From Flavobacteriales bacterium (GTDB lineage Bacteria > Bacteroidota > Bacteroidia > Flavobacteriales_F > PHOS-HE28), in contig JBGAJW010000001.1 in NCBI GenBank assembly GCA_044224725.1, positions 77,012 through 141,011 on the forward strand: a stretch of DNA of 64,000 bases. Reading direction: 5' to 3'. Shown one piece after another: positions 3,827 to 6,352 of this stretch. The notes under the pieces are model-generated. The model made no database searches. It was not told the origin of the DNA and saw only the letters and a list, made by a program, of their open reading frames with translations. The position numbers and the translations under genes are program-made. Position 1 is the first letter of the stretch; every line of letters starts with the position of its first letter.

Positions 3827-3828
3827 TC

Positions 3829-3904
3829 AAAGCGGCCAGCCATCCCCTGGTCAAATGCCCGGGGTCGGTGACGCGGGAGTTCAATATGGGGGTCTTCGAC
3901 GTAG
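3829..3904 (+). repeat. Repeat copy C: third, more diverged copy (AAAGCGGCCAGCCA ... GGGAGTTCAATATGGGGGTCTTCGAC).
   Basis: Shares the 14-mer GAGTTCAATATGGG and the upstream GCGGC(G/C)AGCCA block with copies A and B. It abuts the 3' end of the RAYT pseudogene. Confidence 0.65.
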
Positions 3905-4148
3905 GTCATCCCCTATTGAACCTATCCCCATTCCAATTCAACGGGTTGTCCTGGATGTATTTAGCGATGCGATCGTGTTCGCCATCGTCACGGATCACCC
4001 GGTCCCAATAATTGCGTTGCCATACGGGCGTGCCGTGCGGCACCAACCCATCGCGGTACGCCATGCGCGTAACCGCGGATTTGTACGACGCCACGATCTG
4101 CCCCAACGCACCACGCGGGATGCCCGGCGGTTTTGCGGTATCCCGTAG

Positions 4149-4168
4149 GGGCGCGTCATGACGCGCCC
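4149..4168. repeat. Perfect 20-bp palindrome GGGCGCGTCATGACGCGCCC (REP-like), copy 1, inside the RAYT pseudogene.
   Basis: Self-complementary. An identical copy lies 163 bp away at 4312-4331. Both encode ARHDAP in the respective RAYT fragments. Confidence 0.85.
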
Positions 4169-4311
4169 GCGTGTGTGGGCCGGGTGTGTCGGCCAACGAA
4201 CGGGATGGACCGCCGGGCATTTCGATACCGGAATCATCGGGTGTGGCGTCGGGGACGTTGTCGGCCAATCCATGCGCGTCCACCGCACCAATGCCGGGCG
4301 CGTTCGTTTCC

Positions 4312-4331
4312 GGGCGCGTCATGACGCGCCC
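4312..4331. repeat. Perfect 20-bp palindrome GGGCGCGTCATGACGCGCCC, copy 2.
   Basis: Identical to 4149-4168. Confidence 0.85.
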
Positions 4332-4819
4332 CTACCGCACGCACATCCGGCCCACCGCGCATCAACCGTTCCCGTATGATCACGATACCATGCACATGGT
4401 TGGGCATCACCACGAATTCCCCGACATCCACATGCGCCATGTGTTCCGGTATCGCGTCCCAACACCGTCGCACCAATTCACCGATGGGTGATGGATGCAT
4501 GATGCCATTCGCAATGTTCCCGAACCAATGTCGGCGACCATCGGTGCAGATGGTCAGGTAATACGCGCCGACGGTGACGTAATCGTAACCCGGTCGGCGA
4601 ATGGTGTGGCGTTGCGGCAGGTCGGCCATGGCAACCCGAATATCGCCTCAACGATCGAACCGGCCCATATTCCGGTCTGCTGCTCGCGCGAAACGCGACA
4701 TTGCGAATGATCGGTCATGGAAGGTTGGATCCGGAACTGGTAGTACAGTTGGCGCCGCAACGGTCGCGTTGCCAATTCGCCGGTCACCCCGGCCACGTGA
4801 CGCGGTTTGCCTGATGCCC

Positions 4820-6352
4820 TCACTCCTTCACGAACCGCCACCGCAGCCCACCCGCCTGCAGGATGTAGCTGCCCGCCGTTAGTCCGGCTACATCGATGCT
4901 GTTGTGGTCCTGCGTGGTGAGGAGCGTGCGGCCGTTGAGGTCCATGACCGTAACGACGGCACCGGCCTGCAGCCCGTTGGGCAAGTACAGCCTGTCCGTG
5001 GCCGGCACGGGGTACAGGAGCCCGCGCGGTGCTTCCGCCTCGGCCATGGCGGTGGACAATGGCGTCAGCTTCGCCACGAAGCCATCACCGGCCTGGCCGG
5101 TCAGCTGGGCGCGTCCGGCGAGATAGAGCGCCCCATCGTTCCCCATGACCATGGCGTTCACCTTGCTGCTTTGTGCCCCGGGCACGTTCCACGGCTGCCG
5201 GAAGAGCCGGGTGCCGGTGGTGTCATACTCGTAGAGATAGGATCCGATGTAGGCCGAGGCGATGGTCCAGCGATCGTCGTGCAGGAGCGCGTGGTCCATG
5301 TTGAGGCAGTAGTTGACGTTGCCACCGGTGAGCGTATCGGTCCAGAGCACGTTGCCAGCGCTGCTCAATTTGGCCGCGAGCAGATACGGTCCGGGGATGG
5401 ACGCTTGGTAAGGCCCCTCGCCGATCGCGTACACATCGCCCTGCGCATCGCAGCGGACATGACGAACACGACCGCTCGCACTGCTCAATCCGGGAAACCC
5501 GAAGTCGGTGCTCCAGAGGATCCCGCCTGCTGCGTCGAGCTTCGTCACATTGAACTGCTGGTTGCGTCCGCCACCGACCAGTACGTGCCCCAGCCCATCG
5601 GTGGTCATCGCGTTGTTGTTGTCCGTGCTGGTCACTTCAAGGTCCGTGGTCCAGAGGTGTACACCCGCCGACGAGTAACCGACCGCGGCGGAATAAGAAG
5701 TGCCGTTGCGTGTCCACATGACCACCACCGAATCGCCGATGGCCTCCACCGCCAGACCAATGCCGAAGCCGTTCCAGTTGGTGGGCAGCGGATGGGTGAC
5801 CCACCACGCCAGATCACCCGAAGCCGTGAGCCTGGCCAGCCCCGGCCTGGTGAGTCCATTGGCGGAGAAGGTACCGGTGAGGTAGACCTCGCCATCGGCA
5901 TCCATCGTTGCATCGCCGAAGTCATCGCCGGTGTTGGTACCTGCGGAGTTCAGCACGATCTCACCGGTCTGGGTCCCGCTCGCCGTGAAGCGCTGCACGA
6001 GCACATCGTTGGTGCCGGTCTGGTTCTCGTAATCGCCCAGCGCGAGCACGGAGCCGTCGTTCAGTTCGAAGATCTTCCACGCGCGTCCGATGCTGTCCGG
6101 TAGGCCATTGGTCCAGAGCGGTGCTCCCGTTCCATCGAAAGCCGTGACGAAGAACTCCGTGGTGGTGGTGGGCACGAACACACCGCTCGTGACCAGATCC
6201 CCGCTCGGCAGGAGCACCAGGTCCTCCGCGCTGTGGTAGCCCGTGAGCCCGTCGAAAAGGCTGATCCACTCCGTGTTGTATTGGGCGTGTCCATCGGCAG
6301 CCGCAACCAAGAGGACACCTGTAAGCAGGAAGGGTAGCGATCCGTTCTTCAT
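4820..6352 (-). CDS. T9SS-sorted secreted beta-propeller repeat protein (SBBP / delta-60-like repeats) with a type-A T9SS C-terminal sorting domain.
   Basis: Signal peptide. Repeated DG(S/D)..L(A/V)G motifs. C-terminal roughly 80 aa typical of the Por secretion CTD (LYPVPATDRLYL...GSYILQ). Confidence 0.8.
   Translation of the reverse strand: MKNGSLPFLLTGVLLVAAADGHAQYNTEWISLFDGLTGYHSAEDLVLLPSGDLVTSGVFVPTTTTEFFVTAFDGTGAPLWTNGLPDSIGRAWKIFELNDGSVLALGDYENQTGTNDVLVQRFTASGTQTGEIVLNSAGTNTGDDFGDATMDADGEVYLTGTFSANGLTRPGLARLTASGDLAWWVTHPLPTNWNGFGIGLAVEAIGDSVVVMWTRNGTSYSAAVGYSSAGVHLWTTDLEVTSTDNNNAMTTDGLGHVLVGGGRNQQFNVTKLDAAGGILWSTDFGFPGLSSASGRVRHVRCDAQGDVYAIGEGPYQASIPGPYLLAAKLSSAGNVLWTDTLTGGNVNYCLNMDHALLHDDRWTIASAYIGSYLYEYDTTGTRLFRQPWNVPGAQSSKVNAMVMGNDGALYLAGRAQLTGQAGDGFVAKLTPLSTAMAEAEAPRGLLYPVPATDRLYLPNGLQAGAVVTVMDLNGRTLLTTQDHNSIDVAGLTAGSYILQAGGLRWRFVKE

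Follow-up and report, generated by a model that had tools for sequence, protein, structure and literature searches.

Layout of the locus

The window, a 64-kb stretch of Flavobacteriales DNA, carries on its minus strand a transposase-like gene whose two halves lie in different reading frames. The N-terminal half is found in an ORF of 131 aa (4629..4234) containing MPNHVHGIVII, and the C-terminal half in an ORF of 138 aa (4322..3906) containing WQRNYWDRVIRD and YIQDNP. A perfect 20-bp palindrome, GGGCGCGTCATGACGCGCCC, is present in two copies, at 4149-4168 and 4312-4331, with a start-to-start distance of 163 bp and 143 nt between them. No further match was found in the 64-kb window, even with up to three mismatches, and the number expected by chance is 0 (100 shuffles). 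Both copies translate as ARHDAP, each in its own ORF. The original prediction of a 20-mer placed twice, 163 bp apart, inside an HUH/Y1 gene with out-of-frame halves thus holds for this assembly. The features of the locus are as follows.

4629..3906, minus strand: RAYT/TnpA_REP (subclass 2.4-like) gene; 724 bp in the window, 723 bp (240 aa plus stop) in four other assemblies
4375..4407, minus strand: HuH motif MPNHVHGIVII; fits NH[IFV]H and aligns with the VVLPEHMHCIWT region of 4er8
4312..4335, minus strand: REP1; 5' sense foot GTAG (4332-4335) followed by the palindrome (4312-4331); translated (V)GARHDAP
4310..4311, no strand: extra-base site; CC in the window (sense GG), a single C in four independent assemblies
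4169..4309, minus strand: variable inter-REP linker; encodes protein in the C-terminal frame (ETNAPGIGAVDAHGLADNVPDATPDDSGIEMPGGPSRSLADTPGPHTR); relatives have homologous linkers that are in frame
4145..4168, minus strand: REP2; palindrome (4149-4168) followed by sense CTAC (4145-4148; GTAG on the plus strand); translated ARHDAPL
3987..4022, minus strand: WQ motif region WQRNYWDRVIRD; conserved, not the catalytic Tyr
3942..3959, minus strand: Y motif YIQDNP; catalytic Tyr at 3957-3959, aligned with Y115 of 4er8, its N with the metal ligand N119

Read in the sense direction with its flanks, the arrangement is GTAG-REP1-143 nt-REP2-CTAC, in which the two 25-nt arms are 100% complementary and REP1 and REP2 are mutually inverted with their GTAG feet facing outward. 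In the predicted minimum free energy fold of the single-stranded DNA, REP1 pairs with REP2 (-70.1 kcal/mol, z = -6.1). No REP lies beside the gene in the window, nor is there any other GGG...CCC hairpin across the 64 kb. A separate 12-nt inverted repeat at 3879-3890 and 3910-3921 (GTTCAATATGGG and CCCCTATTGAAC; 92% complementary, 19-nt loop) spans the RAYT stop codon and is not REP-like.

The gene product has the motifs and predicted fold of a HUH/Y1 enzyme

H78, H80 and N174 do not vary in the family alignment, and conservation at Y170 is 90% or higher. The Y motif YIQDNP agrees with the YIxNNP of TnpA_REP subclass 2.4 at five of six positions, and the NHVH and WQ motifs of that subclass are also present. 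The segment WQRNYWDRVIRD had been taken for the catalytic Tyr region, which is incorrect: it is the WQ motif, since it is the Y of AKYIQDNP that aligns with Y115 of 4er8 and the N of the same motif that aligns with N119.

A 186-aa construct of the gene scored 17.6 bits (E 0.0044) against Pfam PF01797 (Y1_Tnp), below the 23-bit gathering cut-off; this model was matched at E <= 0.01 by nine of 25 family members. Its sole NCBIfam match was NF047646 (REP_Tyr_transpos), at 49.3 bits and E 4.7e-13, short of the curated cut-off of 80 bits. Because both scores fall below the curated cut-offs, the family assignment rests on motifs, profile and fold. The protein search returned 647 homologs (E <= 1e-5), of which the named best matches listed were Flavobacteriales MAG proteins, and several homologs carry the JGI label "REP element-mobilizing transposase RayT". 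Among solved structures, a profile built from 25 homologs matched E. coli TnpA_REP (4er8_A) best, with the HuH strand and Y115 both aligned. An AlphaFold model from the 25-sequence alignment reached a pLDDT of only 41.5, and a 76-sequence alignment was used instead; the resulting model has a mean pLDDT of 80.4 and a pTM of 0.75, with values below 50 in the REP-coded loop (residues 89-108). The top 30 Foldseek hits in the PDB were all TnpA of IS608, ISDra2 or IS200, or 4er8 (E 1.4e-6 to 7.7e-5, target TM 0.55-0.72). The modelled fold is that of a HUH/Y1 enzyme, and the product is predicted to be a single-strand DNA endonuclease-ligase. The identification of a RAYT/IS200-like HUH-Y1 gene is therefore borne out by the motifs, the profile match to 4er8_A and the fold. 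As regards an IS200/IS605 insertion sequence, the window contains one copy of the gene and no tnpB-like neighbour, and the syntenic position is conserved, all of which argue against that classification.

A single extra base separates the two halves

An exact look-up of the C-half ORF of the window returned no record, but neighbouring genes did match the same DNA elsewhere, and other assemblies of this DNA were reached through the neighbouring window proteins. Four of them were compared over the gene: L146 (ENA ERZ27293230), L147 (SRR14932661), L149 (SRR33394500) and L150 (SRR9586080). Over window positions 3827-4820 (994 bp), the comparison with these four assemblies gave 0 mismatches and one gap. 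The gap lies directly after REP1, where the sense strand reads GCGCCC-GAAACG in the others and GCGCCC-G-GAAACG (GCGCCCGGAAACG) in the window; the extra base is one of the two plus-strand C's at 4310-4311 and does not sit in a long homopolymer (G becomes GG). In all four assemblies the REP spacing is 162 bp and the gene is called as 240 aa with an uninterrupted translation. Against a further assembly, L145, the window shows three substitutions over 8.1 kb, and the extra base is the only gap.

Since four assemblies of otherwise identical DNA are without the extra base, the split is a private 1-nt indel. The halves are out of frame in this assembly, as had been noticed, but the cause is one base beside REP1 and not the 163-bp segment. 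The gene of the population is an intact 240-aa ORF, whether the base is an error or a mutation.

The sequence between the REPs is a linker shared with relatives

According to the original prediction, a 163-bp insertion or duplication bounded by REP-like palindromes had recently split a 186-aa transposase gene and left a pseudogene. Removal of one palindrome together with the spacer (4169-4331) in silico does give an in-frame ORF of 186 aa, which encodes a plausible full-length Y1 protein, and the resulting junction, GTAGGGGCGCGTCATGACGCGCCCCTAC, is natural in L155. Short homologs with a single REP exist: L155 (P0113) has the identical 28-bp double-foot form, and L154 has one 20-mer. Additionally, dimer and double-foot forms are interconvertible via central deletion (Quentin et al. 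2018, PMC6006769). However, the two copies share a codon phase, so that restoration of the frame is arithmetically automatic and provides no independent evidence for an insertion.

The homologs speak against this scenario. They are mostly 216-300 aa long, not 186 aa, and read in one frame as ...VGARHDAP-[40-100 variable residues: PGIGAG...DDPGTGMPGGDPD...HTR]-ARHDAPLRDPRKPPGIPRGALGQIV..., and translation of the window spacer in the frame of the C-terminal half (PETNAPGIGAVDAHGLADNVPDATPDDSGIEMPGG...PHTR) gives a sequence homologous to this linker. The linker protein of the window (PETNAPGIGAV...DDSGIEMPGG...HTR) has homologous, in-frame counterparts in most close relatives. At the DNA level, the N- and C-terminal parts share a frame across the linker in 11 of 15 gene-bearing relatives; nearly all of them have the exact 20-mer as REP2 with a CTAC-type foot, and most also have a GTAG-footed REP1. 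Among 80 more distant metagenome relatives (~35-70% identity), the linker is in frame in 79, of which 62 contain a hairpin with arms of at least 7 nt, mostly GGG...CCC-footed; many of these distant hairpins are GTAGGGG...CCCCTAC with quite different cores. A[RD]HD[AR]P motifs were scored among the best 120 of the 647 homologs, with two in 63, one in 36 and none in 14, the remaining seven being unscorable.

Thus, most close homologs share the spacer as in-frame coding sequence, and identical DNA elsewhere has the 162-bp spacing and an intact 240-aa ORF; the claim that an inserted or duplicated segment broke the gene fails, and we regard such an event as extremely improbable. Any conversion between dimer and double-foot forms is then ancient and left the gene undisrupted, because the linker is in frame in relatives and the ORF is intact elsewhere. 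A pair of REPs is the native arrangement in this Flavobacteriales clade, and the one that the majority of its members show. Short matches (I5, I6, I19) had raised the idea that the spacer was copied in inverted orientation from flanking gene sequence; it was dropped, as the homologs show an ordinary conserved linker.

Origin of the extra base

Frameshifts within the linker were found in three of seven long-read or hybrid assemblies and in one of 88 short-read assemblies (Fisher p = 0.001, with the technology inferred from contig names). Because of this enrichment, a consensus error is favoured over a recent mutation, and the extra base is probably, though with considerable room for doubt, an error made at a perfect palindrome in the source assembly of the window.

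It is nonetheless a serious possibility, at somewhat less than an even chance, that the base is a real and very recent private mutation, in which case the strain would hold a freshly inactivated RAYT pseudogene, or would express fragments only, whereas its close relatives keep an intact gene. The three substitutions in 8.1 kb relative to L145 mark the window as a distinct genotype, and REP1 lesions are seen in relatives, with a loss of one base at the 5' edge in L011 and a scrambled REP1 in L035 and L062. Perfect palindromes are mutational hot spots, and the window is without dispersed REPs, both of which would agree with a recent mutation. On the other hand, three Logan assemblies, each from a different run, agree with the window over 2.2-3 kb in all but the one base, the lesions of the relatives occur mainly in long-read or hybrid assemblies, and the gene shows no second disabling change or decay.

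Frameshifts or rearrangements at or near REP1 were noted in L011 (~5965-5990), in the linkers of L035 and L062, and in L143, mostly long-read or hybrid assemblies. L055 has a frameshift in the C-terminal domain, not at REP1.

A function for the frameshift was also considered, either as a programmed +1 shift at CCC-GGA or as reversible indels at the REP1 foot that would act as an on/off switch of the RAYT and might be footprints of self-cutting. CCC-G is a slippery context for tRNA-Pro, and the REP1-edge lesions in the window, L011, L035 and L062 are independent of one another. Yet neither the position nor the sign of the lesion is conserved, the gene is simply in frame in 79 of the 80 metagenome relatives and in all four assemblies of the same DNA, and the association with long reads points to a technical origin; we therefore give this reading almost no credence. 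Programmed +1 frameshifting at CCC-GGA was rejected, as identical DNA elsewhere is without the extra base. A related proposal is that the REP1 foot is a genuine hot spot of +/-1 indels, which would arise when a hairpin is extruded or when the RAYT nicks its own gene, and through which the enzyme would switch itself off and on. The cases in question are the window (+1, 3' edge), L011 (-1, 5' edge) and the rearranged L035 and L062. We consider this very unlikely; if true, it would amount to self-limiting feedback for a domesticated transposase.

Taken as a whole, the locus is very likely a RAYT/TnpA_REP gene of subclass 2.4 (RAYT group 4) with native intragenic REPs, split by one extra base.

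Genomic neighbourhood

The gene is surrounded by an 87-aa ORF and by genes for a carboxyltransferase, a DUF4253 protein, a T9SS-sorted protein and a peroxiredoxin. The gene had been thought to mark the distal edge of a cassette array; no array was seen, and these neighbours are syntenic genes of housekeeping type. The RAYT adjoins the carboxyltransferase gene in 12 related loci, and this conserved adjacency fits a single-copy, vertically inherited, domesticated gene.

In L001 (2-556), L005 (192-785) and L061 (3119-3570), a second RAYT paralog of ~50-60% identity lies in tandem beside the main gene. Its linker contains another double-foot palindrome, either GTAGGGGCGGCGAATTCGCCGCCCCTAC or GTAGGGGCCGCGAATTCGCGGCCCCTAC, which differ from each other by compensated changes in the stem. 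Between the carboxyltransferase and the RAYT, the final ~57 residues of the former are present a second time, in diverged form (59-65% identity), in L042 (3847-4032), L050 (4691-4876) and L055 (1522-1749).

A dispersed REP family in relatives

The exact 20-mer occurs in 63 loci of a species-level genome collection, ~46 of them in Flavobacteriales/Bacteroidota MAGs; by our estimate, about one match would be expected by chance in 596 Gb of uniform composition. At least five MAGs have the same 20-mer inside the RAYT and on two or three other contigs. The 31 dispersed copies have asymmetric flanks, GTAC (15), GTAA (6) or GCAC (5) on the 5' side and CAAC (23) on the 3' side. They usually lie just past a stop codon, and the first ATG follows the REP at a distance of 14-24 nt. 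The dispersed copies in relatives are single intergenic REPs, and the doublet was seen inside the RAYT only. In L001, L042 and L050, REPs flank the gene as GG(G/A)CCGATCATGATCGG(C/T)CC.

By eye, the same REP, with GTAC/GTAA...CAAC flanks, appears to recur at the same, apparently orthologous intergenic sites across species-level Flavobacteriales MAGs. One site lies between groES and groEL (L004, L030, L047), and another is in an arsenic-type operon, where the REP stands between a gene ending ...CC* and a gene starting MNTAQETKDLVRAKYAEIA (L014, L016, L017, L019, L025, L029, L036, L058, L063, L064). Further sites that look shared are those of L009 and L032, and of L046, L048 and L056. At the shared sites the orientation is constant and the upstream stop triplet is usually within ~12 nt.

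The REP is also found in frame, as VRARHDAPPRD, in a PKS-like ORF of three MAGs (L024, L043 and L044, at about aa 547, 264 and 668); this ORF is open for 700-1000 aa, and the REP falls in the linker just before a ketosynthase-type IAIIGMSGRFPG. Single 20-mers with a GTAG or CTAC foot occur in unrelated phyla as well (L002, L006, L054 and L060; Oscillospiraceae and Chloroflexota MAGs).

These observations agree with the original view of the palindrome as a REP of the kind on which such enzymes act: it belongs to a dispersed family, is GTAG-footed and lies within the RAYT in relatives. The link between REP and RAYT comes from the relatives and not from the window genome, because no REP flanks the gene or recurs in the 64 kb. 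At the low density seen in relatives, the absence of further copies in the window is uninformative.

Two subfamilies can be distinguished in alignment A1, and they differ both in REP type and in the residues that directly follow the linker: ARHDAP (GGGCGCGTCATGACGCGCCC) is paired with KPPGIPRGALGQIV, and ADHDRP (GGGCCGATCATGATCGGCCC) with MPIVPHGSLGRIV (for example P0030, P0033, P0054 and P0082 versus P0001 and P0003). On this sequence pattern, the co-variation could reflect co-evolution of REP and RAYT.

A possible mode of action

By analogy with E. coli TnpA_REP and IS608, the enzyme would bind a GTAG-footed REP hairpin together with its foot on single-stranded DNA, and would cleave and rejoin the strand beside the hairpin. 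As is usual in this subclass, the gene carries its own putative cognate REPs within its coding sequence, as an inverted pair bracketing a variable, low-complexity stretch. In the structural model, VGARHDAP-linker-ARHDAPL is predicted to be translated as a disordered loop that joins the HuH strand to the helix after it and lies at a distance from the active site. The intragenic copies may be tolerated because they encode this peripheral loop. Changes in the length of the linker probably arise when REP half-sites, for example GACGCGCCC, slip or recombine with one another.

Implications

REPs have already been reported inside the RAYT genes of this subclass, and the system is of a known kind; in-frame REPs in subclass 2.4 RAYT genes having been published in 2018, the locus carries little biological weight in itself. 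It does bear on annotation. A "split transposase with duplicated palindromes" in the subclass 2.4 family should not be taken as an insertion, and single-base frameshifts beside perfect palindromes call for comparison with independent assemblies before a pseudogene is declared. In addition, this Flavobacteriales clade offers a clean, low-copy REP-RAYT pair (perfect 20-bp palindromes, apparently orthologous intergenic sites and an in-frame PKS copy) that could help studies of group 4 RAYT function.

Comparison with known systems

The closest described group is TnpA_REP subclass 2.4 of Quentin, Siguier, Chandler & Fichant 2018 (BMC Genomics 19:475, PMC6006769), which corresponds to RAYT group 4 of Bertels et al. 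2017 (PMC5581495). The subclass is characterised by the motifs NH[IFV]H, WQ and YIxNNP, an 8-aa insertion at the end of helix alpha-B, REPs flanking the gene, and a range that includes Cyanobacteria and Bacteroidetes. The coding sequence of its members contains a variable insertion and in-frame REPs, located after the HuH motif and before the Tyr motif; the REPs have the foot GT[AG]G and a stem with three G-C pairs at its bottom, and double-foot variants (GTAG...CTAC) occur (PMC6006769). The 16-mers flanking group 4 genes are of low abundance, ~14 per replicon (Bertels et al. 2017, PMC5581495). The present gene resembles this subclass in its NH[IFV]H/WQ/YIxNNP-type motifs, the lack of a C-terminal extension, its occurrence in Bacteroidetes and its low REP copy number. 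The REPs are likewise similar, reading GTAG-GGGCGCG...CGCGCCC-CTAC, with three G-C pairs at the stem bottom, a GTAG foot and double-foot forms. In-frame REPs are found in the family and in the same DNA of four assemblies, whereas the window copy is broken by a private 1-nt frameshift. It also differs in its Y motif, YIQDNP, with D for the first N, in the lack of flanking REPs and of any dispersed within 64 kb, and in the GTAC/GTAA feet of the dispersed copies in relatives, which are not the canonical GT[AG]G.

The REPs of E. coli are imperfect, bulged hairpins that flank the gene and number several hundred copies, whereas those described here are perfect 20-bp palindromes, intragenic and low in copy number. 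With E. coli TnpA_REP itself (PDB 4ER8; Messing et al. 2012, PMC3479197; Ton-Hoang et al. 2012) the gene product shares the predicted HUH/Y1 fold (Foldseek E 7.6e-6), aligned HuH and Y115/N119 residues and, by analogy, a substrate of the GTAG-footed REP hairpin type. However, the identity is only ~14%, and the GTAG-reading C-terminal domain of the E. coli enzyme is absent.

The inverted REP1/REP2 pair, brought together in the predicted single-strand fold, recalls the REPINs (Bertels & Rainey 2011, PMC3116915). Unlike REPINs, the dimer lies within coding sequence and is translated, and its spacer of 141-143 nt is variable; the dispersed copies in relatives are singlets and not copies of the dimer, which separates this family from REPINs. 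Intragenic GTAG REPs and REP dimers have been described in frame in flexible parts of proteins, where they are tolerated (Di Nocera et al. 2013, PMC3733652). The present REPs are similarly in frame, as is the copy in the PKS linker of three MAGs, but here the host gene is the REP transposase.
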